DNA of 64,000 bases from Armatimonadota bacterium (GTDB lineage: Bacteria; Armatimonadota; SYMT01). This document shows positions 5,968 through 21,247 of the stretch, one piece after another. Positions within the stretch are counted from its first letter, which is position 1. Every line of letters starts with the position of its first letter. The translations under genes were made by a program, and so were the position numbers. The stretch spans positions 160,001 to 224,000 of the forward strand of contig JAWLHY010000009.1 of assembly GCA_041690135.1 (NCBI GenBank). Direction: 5' to 3'. The notes under the pieces are model-generated. The model made no database searches and was not told the origin of the DNA. It was given only the letters and a program-made list of their open reading frames with translations.

Positions 5968-6258
5968 CTACCTTGCCCGCTGTTCGAACCACTGGTTGCC
6001 GAGGCGGTCGTGGAAGAGGGTGAGGACTTCGCCGTTGGCGAGCTCCAGCTCGTAGTAGGTGCGGCTGACGGGCTGCTCGGTCCACCAGCGGTCGTCGATG
6101 CGCCAGCAGTCGCGCAGGCCCGCCACGGGCTGCAGGCGTTTGGCCATCCATACGGACCGCGGTTCTCCCCGGGCGCCGACCTTCACCTGGATCGGCCGGG
6201 GGGTGTTCAGGGGTCGTAGCGGATCAGTCCGAAGTTTTCTTCCGGTAACAGGGACCAC
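5968..6258 (-). CDS. small protein equivalent to the ImuB C-terminal domain (DUF6504-like)
   Basis: 'WRIDDRWW...RTYYELELANG..LTLFHD....WF' is the ImuB-C signature; GGAGG RBS + GTG at 6258 overlapping upstream gene. Confidence 0.8.
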   Translation of the reverse strand: MVPVTGRKLRTDPLRPLNTPRPIQVKVGARGEPRSVWMAKRLQPVAGLRDCWRIDDRWWTEQPVSRTYYELELANGEVLTLFHDRLGNQWFEQRAR

Positions 6259-7445
6259 GGGTCTACCTCCACAATCCGAAACAGGGCCGGGCGGCCGCGC
6301 AGCCGCCGGCGCTCGCGCAGGTGTTCGAGTTCTTGCTTCAACTGCTCCTGGCGCTGGACGCGCTCGTCTTCGAACAGTCGTTGCTGCCCGTCCAGCCGGG
6401 GGGCCAGGGCGGTGAGCTCGACGGTGAGTTGGGTCAGCACGCCGGAGGGGAGCACGCCCTCCAGGCGGCGTTTCAGCTCGGCGAAGGCGTTCCGGGGGCA
6501 TTCGGTGGGCCGGCGTAGGGTGAGGCGTCGCTCCCAGACTTCGCCGCTCTCCAGGGCGACCTCCATCCGGACCTGCCGCACTCCCCGGTCGCCGCGCTCC
6601 GGCCGGGCCCAGGCACGGCGCAGTACCTGCTCCAGCGCCAGGTGGAATAACTCGGTGGTGGGGGGATAGCGGAACGCCCACGTTTCCCGGACCACCGGCG
6701 CCGGACGGTAGGGAACCAGCGGCTCCCGGTCTTCGCCGCACGCCAGGCGGTGGAGGCGCTCTCCCGGCCGCCCGAAGCGGGCCAGCATGGCCGACCGGGG
6801 CAGCCGCGCGACCCGGCCGAGGGTGCGGAGGCCCATCAGGTCCAACTGGCGCGCCACCTCCGGGTCGGCCGGCAGCAGGGTGCTGGGGGCCTCGCGCAGG
6901 AAGAGGGTCTTGGCTTCGTCGCTTACAGCCACCGGGCGGGCCGGGGTGGCCTGGTGCGCCGCGACCCAGGCGGTGAACTTTCCGGAGGCGAGGCCCAGGC
7001 GCGGCGAGAAGGGCGGGGGTACCACTGTGCACACCGCCGCCGCCAGCTCTTCCGGACGCTCCGGGTCCAGGTGCGGCAGGCCGGTGAGGTCCAGGTAATA
7101 CTGCTCCGGGGATTCCGTCTCGATGCTCGGGCTAAGGGTGTCCAGGGCCTCCAGCAGCCGCAGGTGCCACTGCTGGTAGTGGAGGACGTCGAACGGGAGC
7201 ACCGCGGCGCCCGGGCACCGCTGCGGGACCGTATCGGCCGGGGATCCGGGCTCCAACCCCGCCGCCCGCGCCTCGGGGGAGCAGTCGCGCACCCGGGTGA
7301 TCTCCCCGCTCTTTCCGGATTCCGCCGCGATCACCACCAGGGGTCGCCCGGCGAGATCCGGCCGCCGCGCGCGCTCGGCACAGATGGCGAAGTGGGGGAG
7401 CCACACGCACGCCACGGACTGGGGAACGGCGAGAGAGCCGGACAC
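6207..7445 (-). CDS. imuB: Y-family DNA polymerase-like protein, ImuB type (probably inactive)
   Basis: 'ACVWLPHF...ERARRP', 'SPEARAAGL', 'GKFTAWVAA', 'LGRVARLP' IMS fold; lacks the canonical acidic DxDxF catalytic start; AGGAGG RBS. Confidence 0.85.
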   Translation of the reverse strand: MSGSLAVPQSVACVWLPHFAICAERARRPDLAGRPLVVIAAESGKSGEITRVRDCSPEARAAGLEPGSPADTVPQRCPGAAVLPFDVLHYQQWHLRLLEALDTLSPSIETESPEQYYLDLTGLPHLDPERPEELAAAVCTVVPPPFSPRLGLASGKFTAWVAAHQATPARPVAVSDEAKTLFLREAPSTLLPADPEVARQLDLMGLRTLGRVARLPRSAMLARFGRPGERLHRLACGEDREPLVPYRPAPVVRETWAFRYPPTTELFHLALEQVLRRAWARPERGDRGVRQVRMEVALESGEVWERRLTLRRPTECPRNAFAELKRRLEGVLPSGVLTQLTVELTALAPRLDGQQRLFEDERVQRQEQLKQELEHLRERRRLRGRPALFRIVEVDPWSLLPEENFGLIRYDP

Positions 7446-7801: not shown

Positions 7802-8160
7802 CTAGCTTCCGTCCGATGGGGAGGATGCTTCTTCCAGGCGCAGGCGAAACGAGAAGGTGGAGCCCTCCCCGGGGGTGCTCTCCACCGAGATGTCGCTGCC
7901 GAAGAGCTGCATCAGCTTCTGGCTGATCGCCAGGCCCAGGCTGGTTCCGCCGAACTTCGACATGATTTCGGGAGAGGCCAGGGTGAACTCCTCGAAGATC
8001 GTTCCCAACTGGTTGGCGGGAATGCCGATTCCCGTATCCCGGACGGAGACCTCGACCAACACGGCACCGGGATACCGCTCCACGACTGCCGCATCGATCC
8101 GGATACAGCCGCTGTCGGTGAATTTCACCGCGTTGCCGGCAAGATTCGTCACTACCTGTC
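7802..8160 (-). pseudogene. histidine kinase HATPase_c remnant
   Basis: N box 'NLAGNAVKFT', G1 'DTGIGI', degenerate G2 'GGTSLGL'; no HisKA or sensor domain upstream. Confidence 0.8.
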
Positions 8161-8806: not shown

Positions 8807-10699
8807 ATGTTGCATCGCTTGATCTCCGGAGGGGCACTCCTGTGCACCCTCACGGCAGTTTCCTCCGCCCCCGCGGTGATGGAGAGGATGAGTCGGGTGC
8901 GGCCCGCGCTGGTTCGCTCGGAATCGAAGCCGGCATCCTACCTGGGTGGCTCGACCTCGGGTGATGTGCGCTCCCTCATTGTTCGTGTCCGCGAGCCACA
9001 CCGAGGCGTACAGGCGCTGCGGAAAGCGGGTGCGACCATCACCCGGACGTACTCCCACTTCCCCCTGGTGGCGATTCGCGCCGATTCTGCGATTCTCCAG
9101 CGCGTTCGCGCCTCCCCGGAGGTGTTGCATATCAGCCCGGATGCAGCGGTCCAGCGGACCACGGAGTTCGCCCTCCCGGCGATCAGCGCGGACCTGGCCC
9201 AGCAGTCCGGCGCGAGCGGAAGCGGAGTCGGAATCGCGGTGGTCGACAGCGGCGTAGACCAGCACGAAGACCTCGGTGGGGGCGCTGGTCCCCGTGGCAG
9301 TCGGTGCATTGCCGGTCAGGACTTCCTCACCGGCTCCCAGAAGATGGTGAATAACGACCAGTGCGGTCATGGGACGATGGTCGCGGGTATCGCCGCCGGT
9401 AACGGTCTCGCCAGCACCTACAACGATGGGCGGCGCTGGACGACACGGCGCTTTGCGGGCGTGGCGCCCAAAGCGAACATCATCAATCTTCGGGTGCTGG
9501 ACCAGCACGGCCGGGGCGATGTCGCCACCGTCCTGGCGGCCCTGGACTGGTGCATCCAACATAAGAACCAGTACGGCATCCGGATCGTCAATCTCTCCCT
9601 GGGCCATCCTCCCGTGGAGAGCTACCGGACGGACCCGCTTTGCCAGGCGACCGAGACGGCCTGGAAGTCCGGCCTGGTGGTGATCTGCGCGGCCGGCAAC
9701 CGGGCCCGGGTCAACCAGGACAGCAGCACCGGCGGGAGCCGGTACGGAACGATCAACAGCCCCGGTACGAGCCCGTATGTGATCACCGTCGGCGCGGCGA
9801 AGGACCTCGGTACGGCCTCGCGTGATGACGACGGGGTGGCGAGCTACAGCGGGCGTGGGCCGACTTTGCCGGATCACATCCTGAAACCGGACCTGATCGC
9901 TCCCGGTAACCGCATCATCAGCTTGCGGCATCCCGGCAGCGCACTCGAACGCGCTGCGGACCGCACCAATCTCGTGCCCCTCGATTACTACTGGGTCAAC
10001 CCGATCGCGAAGGGCCGGGAACAGTATTTCAACCTCTCGGGGACGAGCATGGCCGCGGCGATGGTCAGCGGGGCGGTGGCGCTGATGCTCGAGCAGGATC
10101 CCGGCCTCTCTCCCGATACCGTCAAAGCGCGCCTGATGCTCACGGCCCGCAAGGTGTGGCGCGCGGACGGCACCACGCCGGATATCTTCAGCCGCGGTGC
10201 CGGCCTGTTGGACGTAAAACGGGCGCTGTTGTGTCCGGTTACCGCTACCCGCCCCGCCTTCTCCCCCTGGTGCGAGCGCACCGAGCACGGGATCCGGATC
10301 CGGATGCAGCAGAGCCTGACCGGCGAGCAGGCGTTGTGGTCGGACCAGGCGCTGTGGGCGGACCAGGCCCTGTGGGCGGATCAGGCGCTGTGGGCGGACC
10401 AAGCCCTCTGGGCGGATCAAGCGTTATGGGCGGATCAGGCCCTCTGGGCGGATCAAGCGTTGTGGGCCGATCATCACGTGCGCTCGGATCAGGCGCTGTG
10501 GTCGGACCAGGCGCTCTGGGCGGACCAGGCCCTGTGGTCGGACCAAGCCCTGTGGGCGGACCAGGCCCTCTGGGCGGACCAGGCTCTGTGGGCGGACCGC
10601 CAGATACAGGCGGATCAGGCGTTGTGGTCGGATCAGGCGCTGTGGTCGGACCAGGCCTTGTGGGCGGATATCTTCCGCGCATGTATCAGTGGTGATTGA
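8807..10699 (+). CDS. secreted S8 (subtilisin-like) serine peptidase with C-terminal DQALW(A/S) repeats
   Basis: Signal peptide, prodomain, catalytic D (VVDSG), H (GHGTMVAG), oxyanion N (AAGN), S (GTSMA). Confidence 0.95.
   Translation: MLHRLISGGALLCTLTAVSSAPAVMERMSRVRPALVRSESKPASYLGGSTSGDVRSLIVRVREPHRGVQALRKAGATITRTYSHFPLVAIRADSAILQRVRASPEVLHISPDAAVQRTTEFALPAISADLAQQSGASGSGVGIAVVDSGVDQHEDLGGGAGPRGSRCIAGQDFLTGSQKMVNNDQCGHGTMVAGIAAGNGLASTYNDGRRWTTRRFAGVAPKANIINLRVLDQHGRGDVATVLAALDWCIQHKNQYGIRIVNLSLGHPPVESYRTDPLCQATETAWKSGLVVICAAGNRARVNQDSSTGGSRYGTINSPGTSPYVITVGAAKDLGTASRDDDGVASYSGRGPTLPDHILKPDLIAPGNRIISLRHPGSALERAADRTNLVPLDYYWVNPIAKGREQYFNLSGTSMAAAMVSGAVALMLEQDPGLSPDTVKARLMLTARKVWRADGTTPDIFSRGAGLLDVKRALLCPVTATRPAFSPWCERTEHGIRIRMQQSLTGEQALWSDQALWADQALWADQALWADQALWADQALWADQALWADQALWADHHVRSDQALWSDQALWADQALWSDQALWADQALWADQALWADRQIQADQALWSDQALWSDQALWADIFRACISGD
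10325..10666 (+). repeat. coding 18-nt tandem repeat: 17 x (D/E)QALW(A/S) plus 2 in-register spacer hexapeptides
   Basis: 342 nt = 19 x 18 nt; blocks of 8, 6 and 3 units split by DHHVRS and DRQIQA. Confidence 0.97.
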
Positions 10700-10793
10700 T
10701 GCGTGGGATAGGTAGCTCGTCGCTGCCTCTCCCCACAACTCAGCAAGTTCAAGCTCGCCCCGCACTCGTTGCCGCGGCTTCGGCTTACCTGTA

Positions 10794-10823
10794 GCCTGCC
10801 GGATGGAAGAGCATCCGGCAGGC
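10794..10823 (+). terminator. GC-rich hairpin after S8 gene
   Basis: GCCTGCCGGATG-gaagag-CATCCGGCAGGC 12-bp stem; no clear U-tract. Confidence 0.45.
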
Positions 10824-10970
10824 GTCTACCCTAGCTTCCTTCAATACCGACCGTAGTTTGGCCGGAGAATAGCTGGCAAGGCCGCATCGTTCCCACGGGG
10901 TGGTGCGAGGTGTTTCCTAGCGTAAGTGCGCCTCGCTCTGTACCGGCCATTCGCTGAATCAGCAGAAAGA

Positions 10971-11738
10971 GTGCCGTCAGTGAGATTCCGAAAAGCATTT
11001 ACTTTGATAGAACTGCTGGTTGTTATAGCGATAATTGCTATCTTGGCCGCAATTCTTTTCCCGGTGTTTGCCCAGGCCCGCGAGGCGGCACGGAAGGCGT
11101 CCTGCCTTTCCAACCAGAAGCAAATCGGGATGGCGATCTTGATGTATGCGCAGGATTATGAAGAGGGAATCGTTCCGTGGCTCGCGCCGTCCAATGGCAC
11201 CCCGGCCAGCCAGCGAATCTGGAGCACCCTCCTACAGCCGTACATCAAGAACGGCGCGAACTACTCCAGCACGTCCAGTGGGGTGATGCGGTGCCCCTCG
11301 TGGAGTGAACAGCGAGTGTTGCAGGCGGCCCAGGCATGTGGCACCACCGCCAACGTTGCGCCGATTTTTCCCGCGACCGAGCTCTACTCCAGTTATGGGA
11401 TTGCACTTCCCATCTCTGGAGGCGACGGCTCCGCCGCCAATCCCTACTTCCGGCAGCCAGGCAGTGGCGGCACGGTGGTCACCATCCTCCCTGCGGTGAC
11501 ACGAACCAGTGAAACGGCCATTGTCGCGGATGGCTTCACCGGATTCAAGCAAGGACTGAGCCCGGGCAGCGTGCGGATCGTCTTCGGGTGTGAGGCCCAA
11601 CGCGCGCATAACGAAGGGGGCAACCTGGTCTTCCTGGATGGCCATGCCAAATGGATTAAGGGAAACCCGGAGTCCTACGTATCGCAAAGCTTTAGCGGAT
11701 TGCATTACCAGCGGTACTTCTCCTACGACATGGAATAG
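10971..11738 (+). CDS. prepilin-type N-terminal cleavage/methylation protein (DUF1559-like, H-X9-DG)
   Basis: '[31 protein letters not shown]' and C-terminal '[15 protein letters not shown]'; exact start uncertain (10926/10971/10980). Confidence 0.92.
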
Positions 11739-11845
11739 GGACGTGCTGCGGGTGTGCCACCTTCGGTTCGACAGCGCGCTAGTGCCGATGGAGCCGGCTC
11801 ACGAGGCGTCGCCAGCCAACAGCAGTTGGACTTCTGGGGATCAAC

Positions 11846-14377
11846 ATGCGTTTTAGCGACCTGCCTCCCCGCCTGAAGTTGTTTATCGCTGGGCATCTGT
11901 GTGTAATTCCGCTGGTCTTCCATGCTCTAGCCAGCGCGCATCTGCGACCGGATTGGTGGTTGGTCGCATTGCTCCTGCTCTCCACGCTGGTTTTCAGCAT
12001 GTGGAAGGTGGAGCTCACCATCTTGCAGGGGCGCATGACCCCGACCTTCGCGGTGGTATGCCTGGCGTTGCTGCTGCAGGGGTTGCCGGCGGCCCTTCTG
12101 TGTGCCGCATTTGGTGCATTGGTTGGAAGCTTCGTGCGCTCGGAACGGGGTGGCTGGACAATCACACTGCTTCGCCCCCAGGCATATCGGGTGTGGTTCA
12201 ACGTAGCCAACTGCGTGCTGGCCTGTGTGACCGCGGCGACCGTCTTCGCCCTTGTAGCGGGATTCCTCCACCACACCGCGTTAGGTAATGTTCTGGGACT
12301 GCTCGCTTTCACTTCCGTCTACTTCGTGATCAATACGGCGGGAGTTGCGACAGCCCTGGCACTCCGAGAGCAGGAGTCATGGGTCTCGATCTGGAAGCTT
12401 AACTTCCTTTGGACGGCTCCCGGATTCTTCGCCTCGGCCTCCGCGGCGGCGGGAATCCGGGCAGCATATCAATACCTCGGGGCCTGGTCCCTTTTGCTTC
12501 TGCCGCCACTCTACCTCGTCTCCTATTCCTACCGGTTGTACATGGACCGGCTGCATCTGTTCTCGGAGAAGATGCAGCAGGACATGGCTCACATCAAAGA
12601 GCTGAACAAGCTTAACCAATCCATCATCGCCTCGCTGGCCACCGCTATCGACGCAAAGGATCACTACACCTGCTCCCACATCAACCGGGTCCAGTGTTAT
12701 GCACTGACGCTCGCACGCGCCGCCGGGCTCGCCGAAGCGGATGTGGAGGCCGTAAAAACAGGGGCGTTGGTGCACGACATCGGGAAGTTGGGAGTACCCG
12801 ATCACATCCTGAACAAACCCGGTAAGCTGACCGCTGATGAGTTCAAACGCATCCAGGCTCATGTAGCGATTGGCGCCGAAATTCTAGAGCCCGTGCCGTT
12901 TCCCTTTCCCGTGGTGGACGTGGTGCTTACGCATCACGAGCGCTGGGATGGGCTGGGTTATCCCAAGGGACTCAAAGCCGAAGAGATCTACATTGGCGGA
13001 AGAATTATTGCGATTGCGGATGTGTTCGATGCCCTCACCTCCGACCGACCCTACCGGCGGGGTCTCTCGGAAGAAGAGGCACTGCGAATTCTGAAGGAAG
13101 GCGCCGGAAAGCAGTTCGATCCGTCCTTGGTGGAGCTGTTCGACCAGGTACTCCCGGAAGCCATCCGGGAGATTGCGGCCATGGAAGCCCAGCACGCCCT
13201 CCAGGCATCCGAGCCCGGAGTCGCGCCGGATGGTCCCTCCGCCTGGGTTCAGATCCGGCAGGCGGCCGTGGAAATGGCTGCCGTTAAAGACGTAGCCCAA
13301 CTCCTGGCCGAGCAGGAGACGGTAGAGGACTTGATGGGAGTTCTGCTCGACCGCACGCTGAACTTGCTACCGGTGGATACCACGATTTGCTACCTGATGC
13401 CACCGGGCGAGACTCAACTGACGGCGACGGCGGTAGCAGGCAAGTACGCGGAGAAACTCACCGGGATGGCAATTCAGCTGGGGGAGGGCATGGCCGGCTG
13501 GGTGGCCGAGAAGCAACAGACGCGGATAAACGTGTCTGCCTCCCTGGACCTGGCGCGGCGGTTCACGCCGGAGGAGGTTATGGAGCTGAGCGCCGCTACC
13601 GCCGTTCCCCTAAAGTCCGACACCGGTACTTTCGGGGTGCTGGCAGTGTACACGATGGCCTACAGCGTTCTTTCCGAGCATCACCTTCACCTGCTGAGCG
13701 TGCTTGCGGAACATGCGGTCCCCGCCTTCCAGAATGTCCAGCGATTCGAGGCACAGCGACAACTCGCGCTTAAAGACTCCCTCACGGGGTTGTTGAACAG
13801 TCGTGCCCTGCTTTCCCAACTGAATCAATTGCTGGGAACTGGCGAGAGACAGGCGAAGGGAAGAGAGGAATGCTTCAGCCTTCTGGTGCTCGACCTGGAC
13901 AATTTCAAAGAGGTTAATGACCGGCTGGGTCACCTGCGGGGCGACGATCTGCTGCGAGCGGTTGCCGCGACGCTGGAAGGGGTGCGCCGGAGTGGGGATG
14001 TGGTTTGTCGCTATGGAGGCGACGAGTTTGTCCTCTTGCTCCCCGGAACGGCAAGAGCACAGGCGGAACAACTGGTGATGCGACTGCGAGAGACTTTTGC
14101 GGCGTTGCCGCCGGTCGATGGGCAGGTGCGAGTGGGTTTGAGCGTGGGCGTGGCGAGTTTTCCGGAAGACGGAGCTACGGGCGACGTACTGCTCCACGTG
14201 GCGGATCGCAGGATGTACGACGACAAACTCCAGCGACGCTGCAGGGTTAGCCGGACACAGGTGCGCGTCCGAAGTCAATCTCTTGCACGGCCCAAGCAGG
14301 CCCGTCCTGTGGGATGCGGCATGGGTGCTCCTTCGCCAGCCCCCCGAACCAGCGGTTGGCATAGTGGACCTGGATGA
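11846..14377 (+). CDS. multi-TM sensor with HD-GYP, GAF and GGDEF domains
   Basis: About 8 hydrophobic segments in first ~230 aa; 'HDIGK', 'HHERWDGLGYP'; GAF 'GEGMAGWVA'; 'DSLTGLLN', 'RSGD' I-site, 'YGGDEF'. Confidence 0.93.
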   Translation: MRFSDLPPRLKLFIAGHLCVIPLVFHALASAHLRPDWWLVALLLLSTLVFSMWKVELTILQGRMTPTFAVVCLALLLQGLPAALLCAAFGALVGSFVRSERGGWTITLLRPQAYRVWFNVANCVLACVTAATVFALVAGFLHHTALGNVLGLLAFTSVYFVINTAGVATALALREQESWVSIWKLNFLWTAPGFFASASAAAGIRAAYQYLGAWSLLLLPPLYLVSYSYRLYMDRLHLFSEKMQQDMAHIKELNKLNQSIIASLATAIDAKDHYTCSHINRVQCYALTLARAAGLAEADVEAVKTGALVHDIGKLGVPDHILNKPGKLTADEFKRIQAHVAIGAEILEPVPFPFPVVDVVLTHHERWDGLGYPKGLKAEEIYIGGRIIAIADVFDALTSDRPYRRGLSEEEALRILKEGAGKQFDPSLVELFDQVLPEAIREIAAMEAQHALQASEPGVAPDGPSAWVQIRQAAVEMAAVKDVAQLLAEQETVEDLMGVLLDRTLNLLPVDTTICYLMPPGETQLTATAVAGKYAEKLTGMAIQLGEGMAGWVAEKQQTRINVSASLDLARRFTPEEVMELSAATAVPLKSDTGTFGVLAVYTMAYSVLSEHHLHLLSVLAEHAVPAFQNVQRFEAQRQLALKDSLTGLLNSRALLSQLNQLLGTGERQAKGREECFSLLVLDLDNFKEVNDRLGHLRGDDLLRAVAATLEGVRRSGDVVCRYGGDEFVLLLPGTARAQAEQLVMRLRETFAALPPVDGQVRVGLSVGVASFPEDGATGDVLLHVADRRMYDDKLQRRCRVSRTQVRVRSQSLARPKQARPVGCGMGAPSPAPRTSGWHSGPG

Positions 14378-14566
14378 AGCGAGTAGGAGGTAGGCAGCCG
14401 GTTCCCACCCGGGGAGGTCCAACCCGAAGCAGGATGCAGCGCTCCCTCGGCACAACTCTCGACTATACATATGCGCGATGGCGGAAAGCGCGCCGTATCG
14501 CAACTTCCAGAGGAGACCCTGGAGGTGAGTACGCGGATGGATGGGCGGGGTGAAGGAGGCGTGCCA

Positions 14567-15574
14567 ATGGAGATTCCCGCAGAAACGATGAACGCGGAGA
14601 CCCTCCCCCGGGAAACGGAAACCCTTCGGGTGCTGGCGGTAGACGACGATCCCGCACTTCAAAAGCTCGTGCAGGCCGGGCTGGGTGACCTGGGGTATGA
14701 CGTGGACCTGGCGGGGAGCGTACCTGAAGCCCGGGCCTGCCTCCGGAACCGGCCGTACTCCCTGGTCCTTTCGGACTACGACATGCCGGGCGCCAACGGG
14801 TTGGACCTGCTGGCGTATGTTACAGAGGTCTATCCCGACCTGCCGTTCATCATGCTGACCGGTCACGACGCAACTTCGCTGGCTCGCAGCGCCATCGGCT
14901 CGGGCGCTCTCGACTTTCTCGCCAAGCCATTCGGCATCCAGCAACTGGCGCGGGCCATCGAGCAGAACCGCGCTCGCCTCCAGCGAGAGCGGGCGCGCAC
15001 TGCGGAGCTAACGAGCGAGATCCTCACGGGAACCATCCGGGCGCTGGTGGCCGCCGTGGATGCCAAGGACCCCTACACGGCGTGCCATTCCGAACGAGTC
15101 ACCCGGCTGGCGTTTTGCCTGGGAGAGGCAGTAGGCCTACCTCCCGACCGGCTGCGGGTGCTGGAGTTCGCCACGCTGCTGCACGACGTCGGCAAGATCG
15201 GCGTTCCCGATGCCACGCTGCTCAAGCCGGGTGCATTGGACGAAGCGGATTGGGCTTTGATGAAACAACACCCTATTCGCAGCGCCCAGATCGTGAACCA
15301 GGTGGGCCAACTGGCGGAGGTGGCCAACGTGGTCCGCCACCACCACGAGCGTATTGACGGCAAAGGCTACCCGGACGGCCTGGCCGGCGAGGCGATCCCG
15401 TGGCTGTCGCGTTTTATCGCGGTGGCGGATGCCTACGAGGCCATGACCGCCGACCGGGGCTACCGGCGGGCCCTGCCGGTGAAACAGGTGCGGGAGATCA
15501 TCCGGCAGAACCTGGGCACCCAGTTCGATCCGTACCTCGGGGAGGTTTTCCTCGGTCTTACGGACCTGCCTTGA
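14567..15574 (+). CDS. response regulator with HD-GYP phosphodiesterase domain
   Basis: REC 'LAVDDD...SDYDMP...LTG...KPF'; 'HDVGK', 'HHERIDGKGYP'; AAGGAGG RBS before ATG 14567. Confidence 0.93.
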   Translation: MEIPAETMNAETLPRETETLRVLAVDDDPALQKLVQAGLGDLGYDVDLAGSVPEARACLRNRPYSLVLSDYDMPGANGLDLLAYVTEVYPDLPFIMLTGHDATSLARSAIGSGALDFLAKPFGIQQLARAIEQNRARLQRERARTAELTSEILTGTIRALVAAVDAKDPYTACHSERVTRLAFCLGEAVGLPPDRLRVLEFATLLHDVGKIGVPDATLLKPGALDEADWALMKQHPIRSAQIVNQVGQLAEVANVVRHHHERIDGKGYPDGLAGEAIPWLSRFIAVADAYEAMTADRGYRRALPVKQVREIIRQNLGTQFDPYLGEVFLGLTDLP

Positions 15575-15579
15575 GGTGT

Positions 15580-15698
15580 GTTGGGCGTTCGGGCGTTGGG
15601 CATTGGGCCACCCCTCGGGTGGTAAACATTCAGGCTTTCGGCCACCCCTCGGGTGGTAAACATTCAGGCCCACCTGCGGGGGGGGGGTAAACGTTGGG
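15580..15698. repeat. short tandem repeats (GGGCGTT-type) plus 30-nt direct repeat
   Basis: GGCCACCCCTCGGGTGGTAAACATTCAGGC twice (~15606, ~15640) and a degenerate third copy; CATTCAGGC/CCTGAA motif shared with 5553-5580 and 5833-5875. Confidence 0.75.
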
Positions 15699-15853: not shown

Positions 15854-16276
15854 ATGTCTGCAAGAACTCGACGGCTCGTTGAACACAGCCTCCTGGCCGC
15901 CTTTTTCGTTGGGCCTTTGCTACACTACTGCGCCGCGATTCTGCTCTTTGGTATGGGAGCCGTCAGCAGTGCGGCGTTCACTTCCGGGGCAGTCGGTAAT
16001 CTCCTCATCGGCGCAATCGCAGGGGTTCTTGCAGTGGCGATTGGCCGGGGACGCCGTATCCATCCCATGCACGTGGCCAACCGGACCAGCATGGTCGCGC
16101 TTTCACTCTGGGCCATCCCCTACTTCGGCATTGCCATAGTGAACAGAGTCGCCCCACAAGTCTACGGCACACTGGGGACGATTGTCGTCGTAATGACTGC
16201 GACAGCCTGGTTGACCGGCTTTCTGGGCATCACGCTTGCGGGCCGCGCATTCCCCCAAGACTGGGATAGTGAGTGA
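15854..16276 (+). CDS. 4-TM membrane hypothetical protein
   Basis: Four hydrophobic segments, ATG start. Confidence 0.6.
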   Translation: MSARTRRLVEHSLLAAFFVGPLLHYCAAILLFGMGAVSSAAFTSGAVGNLLIGAIAGVLAVAIGRGRRIHPMHVANRTSMVALSLWAIPYFGIAIVNRVAPQVYGTLGTIVVVMTATAWLTGFLGITLAGRAFPQDWDSE

Positions 16277-16600: not shown

Positions 16601-19600
16601 ATGCCCGACCGCCGCGTCTACCGCCCCACCGCTCTGCTAGGAACTTCCTGGGTCGTCGCTCTCCTGGCCCCAGGCATGGCAGCCCTCTCGCTAACTGCCG
16701 CCCCTTCGCGACCCACCGCCAGACCCGCCCCGCCAGCGGCGAAAGCCGTGTCCCCGCCAGCGGCCGCAAAGCCGGGATCCGGCACCGTTTCGCTTTCCGG
16801 ACCCTGGCGCAAGGGGTACCGGCTGGCCGCGGGCGAGACCGTGGAGATCTCGGTGCACCTCGACCGCCCCTCTGCTCTCCCTCCGAACGGTCGGGTGCGG
16901 GTGGAGTGGACGCTGGAGCGGCCGGACAATCCGGCGGAGGTCGTCCGCACTCCCGAGAAGGGCGGGCCTCGCCCGGTGGACGCGTTCGAGATCTACACCG
17001 CCCCCACCGCCAACTGGCAGAAGGTCCTCCACGCCCTGGACGGAGATGTCTATCTCCTCTACCGCGCGCCGGTGAGCGGCGCCTATAGCCTCAAGCTGGC
17101 GCCCGTTACCGACGAGAAGTGGGTGGGCGACGCGCCCCGCTGGCGAGAGAAGGGTCTGGCCGCGGAAATCTTCCCGCTGCCCCGGCGCACCCCCTGGCCC
17201 CGGGGGGCAGCGGCTTCCGTCTCTCTCTCCGTCCACCGCATCGCCCTCGGCACGGCAGAGCAGGCCCAGCGTCTCGGGAGTGTGGTAGAGGTCGAGCCGA
17301 ACGATACCCCGGAACAGGCGCAGCCGCTCGCGCTGCTGCCGGATGCCCCTCCAACTGGGGGCCAGGGGACCGGGGTCCGCACCTACGAGATCACCGGCAC
17401 TTCGGACGACCTCGAGTATTTCGACAACGGGCGTACCGGCCGCTCCGGCGACGACTGGTTCCGGGTGGAGTTGCAGGGGACCGAGCCCCGGCTGGTGACG
17501 GCGCAGCTCAGCATGCCGGGGCAGTTCCTCGCGGCGCGCATCCGGTGCTATCAATTGCAGAACGGGGCCAGCCCCCGCGTCCCGCTGGGCGCTCTCCTGC
17601 CGATCGCCGAGTACGTGGGGAAGGTCAACCCAGAGCGCCTACCGTGGCAGGAAGGCAAACAGATCCAGTTCCCGGAAGCGCAGGACCCGAACGAGCGGGC
17701 CCACCGGCAGGACGAGCCGCACAGGGCGAACATCAACCGGATCCTGGAGCCGGGCAAGGTCTACTACTTCCGAGTGGAAGCCAATGCCCCCGCCTACCAG
17801 TTCCAGATCCGCGTCTTGAAGCCCGCCCCCTATACCGACCCCCGGATGGCGGTGCGGCAGGCGATGTACACCCAGATCGGGCAGGTGGATGCCTGGCTGA
17901 CCAACCGCCCGCGCGGCGCCAGCCTGGAGCGCCGGATCCGGGACACCGGCAATCTCCTCGGCACCGGGTGCATGAGCTGCCACACCCAGTCCGGGGTCTG
18001 GGGCCCGGCCGTCCCGATCCAGAACGGGTACCGGGTGGAGAACCGGCAGAACTACGACCACCTCCTCAACGTGATGTACGAGTGCCTGCGGCCGACGAAC
18101 GAGTTGAAGGACGCCGCCAACAACAACAGCGTCCCCCCGCTGGATCTCGGCGACGGTCCCGCCGGAACGCGCGTAGCCGGCTTCAACATCGCCACCGTCG
18201 AGCGGGTGATTCCCCCGCGCAAGCTGCACGCGAAGCAGCAGATCCGCGCCGCGAACCACGTCCTCCTCACGGGCGATCCGGACGGGATCAACGCCGCCGG
18301 GCCCGGTTCGAACGTGGGCGAGGCGATCGTCCAGCTCTTCGGCGCGGAGAGCCTGGGCGCCGCCTGGAAGCAGACCGGCGAGCCCCGCTACTTCCGCGCC
18401 CTGGAGACGCGGGCGCGCGAAATCTTGAAGGACGTGCCGGCCTACACCGATGACATCGCCGTCCGGCTCGATTTCTTCGGCCGCGTTTTCCCGTTGGATC
18501 GTTATGCCGAGCAGGCGCGGAAGGCGGCCGAAGCGGAAAAGGCGGCGGGACAGCCCCAGAAGGGCGGCCCCGCGGAGGTCGCGGCACTGATCGAGCAGGC
18601 GCGGGCCCAGGTTCTCCTCGACGAACACCGGCTCCGGCAGATCCAGAACCCGGACGGCTCCTGGGGCTTCCACCCCGGCTCCAGCCCCGATGATGGGAAA
18701 AGCTGGGCCCGCGGCAACAGCGATTGGGACCCCGCGCCCACCGCGCTCGCGATCACCGGCCTGACCTCCCTCGGCCGGACGAAAGATGATCCGGCCATCG
18801 CGAAGGGTGTCCAGGCGCTCCTGCGGATGCAGGACCCGTCCGGCCGCTGGAACAAGGCGGCGATCACCGGCTTCGTCACCACGGGCTATGCCTTGCACGC
18901 GCTGGGCCGTCTCTACCCAGAGAAGCCGCGCACTCCCATGCGGAGCGAGTTCATCCCGCCGGCCGGCGAGACCTTGCCGGCCGCCGTGCGGCGAGTCCAG
19001 GCGCTCGCTCTCACCGGCGAGCCTCGCTTTGCCGACCTGCTGCGCCAGGCCGCCGCCCATCCCAGCCCGCTCGTGCGCTATTGGGCCCTGGTCGGCCTGG
19101 GCACGATCCATACCGACGCCGGGGTGCCGCTCCTGCTCGGCGCACTGAAGGACAGGGCGAAGCCGGTCCGCGACGCCGCCGTCTGGGGACTCCGGCAGAC
19201 TCTCCTCGACGACCGCGGCTGGCCCGCGCTCTTCGCCGCTTACGAAAAGGGCGACGATTATACCCGGGAGGGAGTCCTCCAGGCGCTCGGGATGCGAGCG
19301 GACGCCGTGCTGCCCGGCTCCTCGCTGGATTGGAAGCGCCTGGCGCGGACGCTCGACCGGGCGATGAACGACGACCCGCACCCGGCCGTCCGGGCCTGGG
19401 CGAGCAAGGCCGCCTGGCAGTGGTGGATCTGGAACCCTCCCGTCCGGCCGGCGGTGAATGCCGCTTGGATCCGGATGCTGGCGCGGCCGGAGCCGAACGC
19501 CCTGGTGGAGCACAACAACCGCTACTCCAGCCAGGCGCTCTTCATCGCCAACGGACACCGGGCCAACGGCTCCCAGGAGCACCAGTACCGGGAGCTTTCC

Positions 19601-21247
19601 GCCCTGTTCGAGGCGCTGCGCCAGCGGCTCGAGACCGCGGACCCGCCCACCAAGTCGCGGCTGGCCCGGCGGCTGGTTGCCGTGGGGGCCACCTTCTACC
19701 AGACCGGCGAAGGCGACGGCGGCAGCCCGGGGCAGATGGGCTACGCGACGCCGGGATCCGGCGCCCTGTTCGGGCAGGCGGTCCTCGTCTACCTGCGGGA
19801 AGTGGAGCCTACCCGGGATATCCGCGCCATCACCGCCGGCCTGGAAGGGGCCGCGAACATCCCGCACGGCCCGCTTCAGGAGTTCCTCATCGACTATGCG
19901 CTCAAGGCGCCCGAAGAGCTCCGCCGCACCGCCGCGGAGGCGGTTTCAGACCCCCGCTCCGCAATGCTGGAGGCGGCGCCGGAGCGGGTCGGTCCGCTGA
20001 TCGCCCAGGTGCAGCGGGGCGCGGCAGACCCCGCGCGGCGTCCTACCCTCTCCGATCCGGTGATCAAGCTGTTCGGCTCAATCAACTGGCTGGTTTCGAA
20101 AGACCCTGAGGCGCAGCGCCACTTCCTCGACCTGATGATCCCGAGGTTTGAGCGATACATCAGCCCTGAAGAGATCCGCTCCCTCTCCGATCCCACCGCG
20201 AAGGCGGCGGCAGAGCGGGAGATGGAGGCGGCTTGGTACCTGGCGGATGAGATGGGCGAGGTTTTCGACTCCAATCCGGACCTTCGCCTGGATATGGTCT
20301 TCCGGAAGTACTTTCCGGCGGAGTTCCGGAACCCGCTGGAGCGTCACTTCTGGGTCCGCAGCGTCACCTGGATCCTGGAACACAAGCACGCCCCACCCGC
20401 GGCAGTACCGGCGGGCGAGCAGCCGGGCCCGCCGAAGAAACCGGTTGATCTGAAGGCGGACCCGGGTCTGGTCATCAAGGACCGTGCCCTTCAGCTCTAC
20501 CTCGACGCGCTCCGTCCGGACGCCCTCCCCCAGACCCGCGCCGTCGCCGTGGGGATCTCGAACCGCACGGCGGTCCGGCGCAACCCCGAGGTCCTGCTCG
20601 CGCTCTCCCGGCTTCTGGAGGTGGAGAAGGACGAGCGGCTCCGGAAGATCGCCGAGAACGTGGTCAAACAGGGCTCGGAACGGTTTGTTCCGGACCTGGT
20701 CGAGGCCCTGAAGCACGAAAAGCGGCCCGGCAACGGGCTGATGGAGGACGGAACTGTCAACCCGCTCTTCCTGGAGGACGTCACCTATTTCCGGGACTAC
20801 GTCATCCCCGAGTTCGCCCGGGCGAAGCGCTCCGACCAGAAGACGTGCATGGGCTGCCATGGGAACCCGGGAGCCGTTCCTTCCTTCACCCTGAAGCCGA
20901 CCGACGACTACGGCTACCTTTCCGTCGCCGACCTCCTCTTCAACTACCGGGAGTCGCAGGCGCGCGTCAACCTCGCCGACCTGGAGCGCAGCAAGCTCCT
21001 GCGCAAGCCGCTGAACGTCCAGGACGGAAAGGAAGAGGGTCACCAGGGCGGCCGGCGCTACCTTCCGCAGGACGAGGGCTACCTCATCCTCCGGAAGTGG
21101 GTGGAGAACCAGCCGAAGGTCCGCGCTGCGGTAATGAGCGCCCGCGAGCCGGGACGGCACCCACTAGCAAGCCTGCTTGCTCGACTGCGATCGCCCGCTC
21201 TCAAGCCGCGGGGAGCTAGAGGAGGTGCTCAAGCAGGTCCACGGTGA
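16601..21247 (+). CDS. large exported multidomain protein: PPC-like region, CxxCH, prenyltransferase/squalene-cyclase-like repeats, HEAT repeats, C-terminal cytochrome c
   Basis: Signal-like N-terminus; 'EVEPNDTPEQAQ'; CMSCH (17969-17983); 'QNPDGSWG', 'QDPSGRW'; HEAT 'HPSPLVRYWA', 'DPHPAVRAWA'; CMGCH (20846-20860) with 'SKLLRKP...GHQGG'. Confidence 0.88.
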   Translation: MPDRRVYRPTALLGTSWVVALLAPGMAALSLTAAPSRPTARPAPPAAKAVSPPAAAKPGSGTVSLSGPWRKGYRLAAGETVEISVHLDRPSALPPNGRVRVEWTLERPDNPAEVVRTPEKGGPRPVDAFEIYTAPTANWQKVLHALDGDVYLLYRAPVSGAYSLKLAPVTDEKWVGDAPRWREKGLAAEIFPLPRRTPWPRGAAASVSLSVHRIALGTAEQAQRLGSVVEVEPNDTPEQAQPLALLPDAPPTGGQGTGVRTYEITGTSDDLEYFDNGRTGRSGDDWFRVELQGTEPRLVTAQLSMPGQFLAARIRCYQLQNGASPRVPLGALLPIAEYVGKVNPERLPWQEGKQIQFPEAQDPNERAHRQDEPHRANINRILEPGKVYYFRVEANAPAYQFQIRVLKPAPYTDPRMAVRQAMYTQIGQVDAWLTNRPRGASLERRIRDTGNLLGTGCMSCHTQSGVWGPAVPIQNGYRVENRQNYDHLLNVMYECLRPTNELKDAANNNSVPPLDLGDGPAGTRVAGFNIATVERVIPPRKLHAKQQIRAANHVLLTGDPDGINAAGPGSNVGEAIVQLFGAESLGAAWKQTGEPRYFRALETRAREILKDVPAYTDDIAVRLDFFGRVFPLDRYAEQARKAAEAEKAAGQPQKGGPAEVAALIEQARAQVLLDEHRLRQIQNPDGSWGFHPGSSPDDGKSWARGNSDWDPAPTALAITGLTSLGRTKDDPAIAKGVQALLRMQDPSGRWNKAAITGFVTTGYALHALGRLYPEKPRTPMRSEFIPPAGETLPAAVRRVQALALTGEPRFADLLRQAAAHPSPLVRYWALVGLGTIHTDAGVPLLLGALKDRAKPVRDAAVWGLRQTLLDDRGWPALFAAYEKGDDYTREGVLQALGMRADAVLPGSSLDWKRLARTLDRAMNDDPHPAVRAWASKAAWQWWIWNPPVRPAVNAAWIRMLARPEPNALVEHNNRYSSQALFIANGHRANGSQEHQYRELSALFEALRQRLETADPPTKSRLARRLVAVGATFYQTGEGDGGSPGQMGYATPGSGALFGQAVLVYLREVEPTRDIRAITAGLEGAANIPHGPLQEFLIDYALKAPEELRRTAAEAVSDPRSAMLEAAPERVGPLIAQVQRGAADPARRPTLSDPVIKLFGSINWLVSKDPEAQRHFLDLMIPRFERYISPEEIRSLSDPTAKAAAEREMEAAWYLADEMGEVFDSNPDLRLDMVFRKYFPAEFRNPLERHFWVRSVTWILEHKHAPPAAVPAGEQPGPPKKPVDLKADPGLVIKDRALQLYLDALRPDALPQTRAVAVGISNRTAVRRNPEVLLALSRLLEVEKDERLRKIAENVVKQGSERFVPDLVEALKHEKRPGNGLMEDGTVNPLFLEDVTYFRDYVIPEFARAKRSDQKTCMGCHGNPGAVPSFTLKPTDDYGYLSVADLLFNYRESQARVNLADLERSKLLRKPLNVQDGKEEGHQGGRRYLPQDEGYLILRKWVENQPKVRAAVMSAREPGRHPLASLLARLRSPALKPRGARGGAQAGPR

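Follow-up and report, generated by a model that had tools for sequence, protein, structure and literature searches.

Here we describe a protease–sensor module encoded at positions 8807–15574 of a 64,000-nucleotide stretch of an Armatimonadota genome (contig JAWLHY010000009.1, positions 160,001–224,000; hereafter the window), in which a subtilase of the S8 family with a tail of Trp-containing hexapeptide repeats is encoded close to a membrane protein (the sensor) that ends in HD-GYP, GAF and GGDEF domains. The protease–sensor pair is a real, conserved module, and we consider it probable that it constitutes a self-processed, re-imported peptide signal. The protease would mature outside the cytoplasm after export and cut its own tail after each Asp, so that one molecule could yield up to 17 peptides of the QALWAD/QALWSD type; these would be re-imported into the cell and bind a predicted cytoplasmic pocket in the S-component-like domain of the sensor, where they may shift the balance between the HD-GYP and GGDEF activities, and hence cyclic di-GMP (c-di-GMP). 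Peptide release would depend on maturation of the enzyme outside the cytoplasm, and the signal might report cell density, confinement or conditions that permit maturation. Export, cleavage register, import route, binding and direction of effect are what we infer here, and the fold of the sensor and its inverted topology are predictions. An earlier note on this DNA had proposed that the protease is both precursor and maturase of peptides read by its neighbour; gene linkage, the register of the units and small unit-bearing genes lend that core strong indirect support, whereas the end of the peptide, the side of the pocket and the specificity of the output do not follow the original proposal.

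Conserved linkage between repeat-tailed S8 genes and this membrane domain, which the earlier note had set as a check, is borne out in two sets of genomes. The window's own genome has four repeat proteases and four copies of the membrane domain, and three of the four proteases adjoin a copy, combined with HD-GYP/GGDEF domains in the window and as histidine kinases on C1 and C8. The membrane domain lies within 8 kb in 50 of 78 loci retrieved via the protease, and among the 56 loci with at least 3 kb on each side 39 have the sensor, five a Reg_prop/Y_Y_Y kinase and 12 neither. Co-occurrence, the figures for which are inflated because protease-linked sequences went into the sensor profile and the cut between strong and weak matches (1e-23) was set after the data had been seen, is close: across 121 genomes of the window's phylum the protease is found in 27 and the sensor subfamily in 29, all 27 protease-positive genomes carrying the sensor, and across 101 Acidobacteriota-centred genomes (of which, going by identifiers, a single one also contributed to the training set) the protease is found in 25, the sensor in 19 and both in 18. 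Within 10 kb of a sensor lie 31 of 70 proteases in the first sample (0.7 expected) and 34 of 83 in the second (1.4 expected), counts in which kin are not independent; a second phylum sample that overlaps the Acidobacteriota-centred one was left out of them. The weaker class of sensor matches is linked in one of 30 cases.

The outputs attached to the sensor vary. HD-GYP-GAF-GGDEF is the commonest combination, and the domain is also joined to kinases, to GGDEF alone or to a SpoIIE phosphatase, with a further 27 domains standing alone. Because the pairing persists while the output changes, the link is to the input domain. The proposed peptide control of c-di-GMP agrees with the HD-GYP/GGDEF output in the window, but the output is not specific to c-di-GMP, since elsewhere the same domain feeds histidine kinases or SpoIIE or has no partner domain at all. 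A metagenome scan returned one locus, ending at the contig edge, in which a sensor-kinase has no protease gene within the 4.8 kb that precede it. The window's genome also holds an orphan sensor-HD-GYP-GAF-GGDEF paralogue with no protease nearby (G000:C1:1376100-1378640; L152), which could read the peptide of another locus.

Two further genes that the earlier note had counted as parts of the system appear not to belong to its core. The REC-HD-GYP gene is linked in one of 138 loci, this one, and was rejected. The pilin-like gene belongs to a subfamily present in 20 of the 121 genomes, and of its 34 matches only the three used to build the profile adjoin a protease, so that it is at most an accessory, mostly unlinked elsewhere. 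The pilin-like DUF1559 genes at 10926–11738 and G000:C8:117799-118605 are each other's closest among 121 matches in this genome (145 vs 48 bits), and both sit at protease–sensor loci; in L116, L118, L121 and L143, too, proteases are flanked by pilin-like genes. Given the Pfam name SBP_bac_10, a capture role for these proteins is conceivable; our literature search for DUF1559 returned nothing about the family.

The protease itself is, as first described, an S8 enzyme with an intact triad: D147, H188 and S414 occur in the Asp-His-Ser order of the family together with the oxyanion N298, all 100% conserved across aligned homologues, and the Pfam Peptidase_S8 match (E=1.5e-47) reaches 162.8 bits against a cut-off of 21.8. 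The match to the I9 prodomain is weak (E=0.006, below the Pfam cut-off), and an alpha/beta prodomain is present in the AlphaFold2 model. Export via a Sec signal peptide is predicted, and 146 of 151 homologues have a signal-like N-terminus by a crude hydrophobicity check. In subtilisin numbering, the family has Thr/Asn/Gln at the Gly166-equivalent position on the floor of the S1 pocket; nearby, the positions that correspond to Gly128 and to 158 are occupied by His/Arg and by Arg, respectively. The protease aligns to the structure of Tk-SP (PDB 3afg, E=2.5e-82; source label 'serine protease AprX') and shares with such Tk-SP/AprX-like subtilases a prodomain and a subtilisin catalytic domain; in contrast, these have no repeat tail in the aligned part and differ at the 128- and 158-equivalent positions. 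Named relatives of both protease and sensor come from Armatimonadota and Acidobacteriota, and a plasmid search returned for the protease only distant Bacillus S8 proteins matching over the catalytic domain, and for the sensor one weak match.

The tail of the window protease has 17 units, the number reported before, which are near-identical rather than copies of one peptide (12 DQALWA, 4 DQALWS and 1 EQALWS in the register then used). They are encoded by 16 distinct DNA 18-mers for three amino-acid units, and differences among the 136 pairs of units comprise 301 synonymous and 76 non-synonymous codon changes; we therefore conclude that the tail is held by selection on the protein and is not the result of recent slippage. 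Among 239 related proteases, 222 tails could be parsed, 212 of them with at least three units, and the consensus is [DSTN]-[SQNR]-[AV]-[VIL]-W-G, with a median copy number of 7 and a maximum of 35. Unit identity is 77% within one tail vs 40% between tails, and paralogous proteases of one genome differ in their unit (QALWAD vs QMTWGD in this genome). Tandem arrays of two or three repeat proteases occur in L109, L118, L135, L137 and L156, some with a stand-alone sensor domain after each protease.

Such a tail might instead stay attached, as a beta-solenoid or a Trp-rich membrane tether, with the intact protease or a tail polymer touching the sensor from the periplasm as an accessory subunit. The six-residue periodicity is indeed dominant (81% of 1,267 unit spacings are multiples of six, as in a solenoid), and degenerate units, including the two six-residue spacers in the window tail, retain register and aliphatic position. 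Trp-free Acidobacteriota tails (L159, L160, L165, L204, L222-L224) match the left-handed beta-helix hexapeptide pattern, which we take to be an aliphatic inward residue every six positions with a small inward residue four later, and the Atlas returned weak Hexapep look-alikes at 0.86 and 0.77. The Trp units, however, fit neither register of that pattern well, and a Pfam scan of the window protease gave no Hexapep (PF00132) match. Other spacings measure 10, 11 or 13 residues and reach as many as 121, with linkers rich in Pro, and 81 of 166 tails have off-register spacers, some of them long and Pro-rich. All five AlphaFold2 models of the window protease score 70–75 overall, and in the best of them the predicted local distance difference test score (pLDDT) of the tail is below 50 nearly throughout. 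We regard a permanently attached tail as unlikely, also in view of the single-unit genes, the sensor topology and the importers described below. The Trp-free tails belong to a clade of proteases with GVIAGD, GVLIGD and GLTLAE types of unit (L159, L160, L165, L204, L212, L215, L218, L219, L222-L224, L228); the sensors paired with them that were examined, three in all, are without the Lys54 that is conserved elsewhere.

If the tail is cut, its likely register can be read from the enzyme's own putative processing site. At the propeptide junction across homologues the putative P4 is V/L/I in 87%, and the residue that we take to be P1, by analogy with subtilisin prodomains, is mostly Thr/Ser/Cys/Ala/Asn. 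Read in the same way, the tail units have [VIL]-W-[GSA]-[DTSN] at P4–P1, and in degenerate units the aliphatic position is kept in 70% and the small position in 83% while the Trp is lost. Natural ends of the proteases fall in this register, in that 8 of 204 end exactly at [LI]-W-[GS]-D, none ends one residue earlier and one ends one residue later; a C-terminus of the form aliphatic-x-small-acid, or one residue beyond, occurs in 71 of the 204 homologues, and the window protease ends in ISGD. A unit register of aliphatic-Trp-small-Asp would thus fit both the probable specificity of the enzyme and its natural C-termini, and the products here are likely QALWAD and QALWSD, ending at Asp, instead of the DQALWA named in the earlier note.

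Separate copies of the unit are found in small genes near the proteases. Frames ending in one unit (mini-genes) number 10 within 700 bp of 158 proteases, vs about 1.1 expected; six, of which two are near-identical, have a signal-like segment, three have no leader but a Shine-Dalgarno-like site or a start close by, and one is without a start codon. In the mini-gene of L050, cleavage at a signal-peptidase-type Ala-x-Ala would leave exactly SAVWGS, and in this genome a 36-codon mini-gene directly follows the C4 protease and ends in QILWSD. With one unit each, such products would be unable to form a solenoid. Stand-alone repeat precursors were sought among shorter proteins; the six matches all come from short contigs, and three of them carry S8 remnants.

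We class the membrane domain of the sensor as MASE9-like, its own scores against Pfam MASE9 (PF20972; 16.8 and 18.4 bits) being under the cut-off of 24.3. A paralogue (25.9 bits) and homologues (37 bits) score above it, and the first matches of the sensor in the Atlas are MASE9 at 0.93–0.94, with 22–32% of members annotated. In line with the MASE9 architecture, eight membrane helices, among them a short hairpin pair, precede the HD-GYP/GGDEF part; the eight helices, the approximate number in the earlier description, are seen in a confident model (pLDDT 92.6), and hydropathy agrees, with two hydrophobic peaks in residues 190–226. In a structure search against 48,161 chains, ranks 1–15 were all energy-coupling factor (ECF) S-components or their kin; the modelled domain has the six-helix S-component fold, its best match being RibU (3p5n; Z 13.8, root-mean-square deviation 3.3, 163 residues aligned), and Foldseek also returns ECF S-components, at weak E-values. 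The catalytic motifs downstream (HDxGK, HHERxDGxGYP and DxxxAxxxDRxYR in HD-GYP; DxDxFK and GGDEF) are intact, and an RxxD I-site is present, so that judged by motif the phosphodiesterase and cyclase domains both appear catalytically intact. The sensor profile retrieves 8,061 proteins at 50% clustering.

The S-component-like fold is predicted to sit in the membrane in the inverted sense, with its pocket facing the cytoplasm. Over 172 domains, Lys/Arg per sequence average 1.7 at the N-terminus, 2.1 in L1, 3.0 in L3, 2.2 in L5 and 1.8 at the C-terminus, against 0.4, 0.05, 0.4 and 0.7 in the remaining loops. The C-terminus is placed in the cytoplasm because the enzymatic domains come after it, and this fusion, the Lys/Arg bias and the helix count together place L1, L3 and L5 inside, a prediction that draws on sequence statistics and on the range of the structural alignment. 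Tandem two-domain MASE9-like proteins with a polar linker agree with both ends being on one side. Conserved polar and aromatic residues lie mostly on the inner half (K54, S/T65, N119, N163, T164, W183, W189), whereas the outer loops are short and poorly conserved, which speaks against an outer contact with an attached tail; a conserved Glu (71%) at the outer end of helix 3 would favour one. The EcfT-docking AxxxA motif of helix 1 is replaced by Thr47 and Ser51 in the window protein, and mostly by Ala47 and Ser51 in the family. Stand-alone MASE9-like proteins of about 240 residues, directly downstream of the protease in L009, L021, L031, L059 and L063, for example, have the same predicted orientation, often with Leu for W189 and Gln for N163, and are possibly decoys, co-receptors or solitary transporters. 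Tandem proteins of about 460 residues (P0168-P0195; L154:3553-5211) also occur, and 36 of the 150 top representatives have two domains.

An inward-facing pocket would require import of the peptide, a step that has to be added to the original proposal. Opp-type ATP-binding cassette genes (two permeases, a family-5 binding protein and an ATPase) occur in 19 of the 78 loci, in several gene orders and always with the sensor, and the nearest solved relatives of one binding protein are AppA, HbpA and DppA. By contrast, Reg_prop/Y_Y_Y kinases, which have an outer propeller sensor, occur in 7 of the 78 loci and never with Opp genes or the sensor. At two loci the neighbour of the protease is a tetratricopeptide repeat (TPR) histidine kinase without a membrane helix. 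These loci, G000:C4:58512-63308 (L151) and L139, have three genes conserved between them: one for a soluble TPR-HisKA-HATPase kinase (the two kinases are 64% identical), one for a repeat protease whose spacers are rich in Pro and Tyr, and a mini-gene that ends in Q[IV]LWSD; the kinase is possibly an RRNPP-like one that reads the same type of peptide. The C4 protease, the fourth of the window's genome, comes after its kinase gene. The split between Opp genes and propeller kinases, together with the soluble TPR kinases, is as predicted by re-import, and both the Opp link and the TPR kinases would be left unexplained by a solenoid or tether. No importer genes were found at the window locus; family-5 binding proteins number three in this genome, all of them unlinked.

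Opp-type importers serve the uptake of peptides in general, and the same gene sets might form a foraging unit, in which the protease digests outside protein, Opp imports the products and the sensor responds to the overall pool of peptides or of an amino acid such as Trp; the tail would then be an activity probe or incidental. Some members of the protease family have no tail (L164, L235), and S-components bind nutrients according to the main text of PMC11109136. Yet each protease has a homogeneous unit of its own that differs between paralogues, pairing with the sensor persists where tails are Trp-free, and the S1 pocket seems narrowed at the Gly166-equivalent position, unlike that of a broad digestive enzyme; we think foraging highly improbable.

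Beyond the solenoid-like features of the tail and the inflated co-occurrence figures, several results count against a released and re-imported signal. Proteases with no sensor within 10 kb number 39 of 70 and 49 of 83 in the two samples, many of the contigs being short, and all 19 Opp loci are from Acidobacteriota and may go back to a single inherited cassette. Nickel and heme are further cargoes of family-5 binding proteins. Only about one unit in four has Asp at P1, the others having Thr/Ser/Asn there. The mini-gene search found none at this window and no new one in 40 further loci. Finally, covariation of the unit motif with the sensor beyond shared ancestry is not above control over 56 pairs (partial r 0.12 vs 0.04 +/- 0.09 when protease columns are drawn at random); the columns that rank highest (63, 65, 115, 119, 167, 194) lie on the pocket side, which is a lead only. 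Together with the frequent divergent arrangements of sensor and protease, this would suit a tail that serves as bait or self-inhibitor and times activation, with the protease cutting some other substrate and the sensor reading the products or controlling protease expression via c-di-GMP; the P4–P1 match and the product-like C-terminus fit an inhibitor equally well. An inhibitor does not, however, need many identical copies under purifying selection, nor separate exported mini-genes with different units beside each protease, though these too may be inhibitors, and regulation alone leaves unexplained the restriction to one sensor subfamily across unrelated outputs. It strikes us as quite doubtful.

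Multi-copy peptide precursors have a eukaryotic parallel in the yeast alpha-factor precursor, from which many copies of a peptide signal are excised by the subtilisin-family protease Kex2, much as we propose for the window protease. In yeast, though, protease and precursor are separate genes, the spacers are dibasic and the receptor is an outward-facing G-protein-coupled receptor. Among bacterial systems, the closest in logic is Rap-Phr/RRNPP signalling of Bacillota, where, in the sections of PMC3601957 on which we draw, a penta- or hexapeptide derived from an exported precursor by export, processing and import is read inside the cell, and the peptide gene lies next to the receptor gene; the mini-genes described here (about 40–60 residues) resemble Phr precursors. 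In contrast, the main precursor here is the protease itself, with its many copies, the usual receptor is a membrane domain of S-component fold and not a soluble TPR protein, the outputs are c-di-GMP enzymes, kinases and SpoIIE, and the hosts are Armatimonadota and Acidobacteriota. At the window locus none of the four proteins has TPR repeats and no small precursor gene lies beside the receptor, such genes being present at about 10 other loci; the system may thus work like Rap-Phr by analogy while falling outside RRNPP at this locus. A further comparison is with S8-linked polymorphic toxin systems (S8-PTS), in which, in the part of PMC9424270 that bears on them, an S8 peptidase is likewise encoded with its substrate as processing enzyme; here the enzyme would process its own tail, and identity with S8-PTS was rejected, the neighbours of the protease being the pilin-like, sensor and REC-HD-GYP genes, with neither a toxin gene nor an immunity gene among them.

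On the receptor side, MASE9 was defined with the present architecture by Galperin and Chou (10.1101/2021.11.05.467447), whose preprint names no fold or ligand in the passages on which we draw and does not contain 'protease' or 'peptidase' in its main text. That an S-component fold can act as a receptor when joined to kinase or GGDEF domains has a precedent in 5TMR-LYT sensors, described in the main text of PMC11109136, where the pocket loops L1, L3 and L5 of S-components and 5TMR kinases face outward and the words 'MASE' and 'inverted' do not appear. With ECF S-components and 5TMR-LYT, as presented there, the sensor shares a six-helix core with an L1 hairpin and a pocket formed by L1 and helices 4–6; it differs in an added helix at both ends, a pocket predicted to be inside and the lack of a docking motif.

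More broadly, we see an even chance that these genes represent a widespread class of bacterial peptide communication, in which a subtilase doubles as the multi-copy precursor of a pheromone, every paralogue sends out a hexapeptide of its own, and the peptide is re-imported and read by an inverted vitamin-transporter fold (MASE9) that controls c-di-GMP enzymes, kinases or phosphatases; mini-genes, stand-alone sensors and TPR and propeller kinases would be modulators or alternative receivers. If true, this would provide a first ligand for MASE9 and a peptide language for Acidobacteriota and Armatimonadota, and an inward-facing S-component fold would extend the known link from transporter to receptor. 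The question is directly testable, as a peptide (QALWAD/QALWSD), its cut site and the side on which it would bind can be named, along with residues that may line the pocket (K54, T65, N119, N163, T164, W183, W189). Our literature search found no account of the protease–sensor pair or of a peptide system of such build. Export-process-import peptide signalling is a known kind of system, here proposed with different parts, and what is new is the predicted inverted S-component fold of the sensor, the link to Opp-type importers, and the unit register with its mini-genes.

Table 1. Features of the protease–sensor locus and its flanks (window coordinates).
Feature	Position	Strand	Remarks
Isolated HATPase_c fragment (histidine kinase remnant), left flank	7802..8152	-	Stops upstream
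S8 subtilase, 630 aa	8807..10699	+	Predicted Sec signal peptide (about residues 1-23), I9-like prodomain, catalytic domain, repeat tail; core component
Putative propeptide autocleavage site V115-Q-R-T118 (P4-P1)	9149..9160	+	From homologue column composition
Repeat tail, residues 508-621	10328..10669	+	12 QALWAD, 5 QALWSD and two degenerate 6-residue spacers; candidate peptide signals
Protease C-terminus I-S-G-D	10685..10696	+	Pattern as unit end: aliphatic-x-small-acid
Perfect 12-bp hairpin, 3' of protease gene	10794..10823	.	Possible terminator or mRNA stabiliser
Prepilin-type DUF1559 (SBP_bac_10) protein	10926..11738	+	GTG near 10980 may be true start; accessory
MASE9-like membrane sensor domain, residues 1-232	11846..12541	+	Predicted ECF S-component fold with one extra helix per end; pocket loops predicted cytoplasmic; core component
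HD-GYP (266-428), GAF (491-627) and GGDEF (642-798) of gene 11846-14377	12641..14239	+	Cytoplasmic; catalytic motifs and I-site intact
REC-HD-GYP response regulator phosphodiesterase	14471..15574	+	Passenger at this locus; not conserved as part of the module
34-nt direct repeat, two copies, right flank	15599..15666	.	

The layout of the locus (Table 1) is as the earlier note had drawn it: four genes in the same orientation occupy the interval it had given, bounded by a kinase pseudogene and short repeats. Its prepilin-like gene carries an N-methylation motif along with DUF1559, and its REC-HD-GYP phosphodiesterase has both domains with their motifs intact. An Rfam search of the locus gave no match, and a promoter and terminator search of it found nothing above chance level. 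Third-codon G+C content is 0.66–0.70 in the genes of 10926–14377 and 15854–16276 vs 0.87–0.88 in flanking genes (6207, 16601), and this lower value suggests that the former were separately acquired. Upstream, 5968–7445 on the minus strand holds an ImuB-like Y-family polymerase gene (Pfam IMS) that is followed by a small frame and is likely part of an SOS mutagenesis cassette. Downstream, 16601–21247 on the plus strand encodes an exported-looking protein of 1,548 residues with CxxCH motifs and prenyltransferase-like and HEAT-like repeats.

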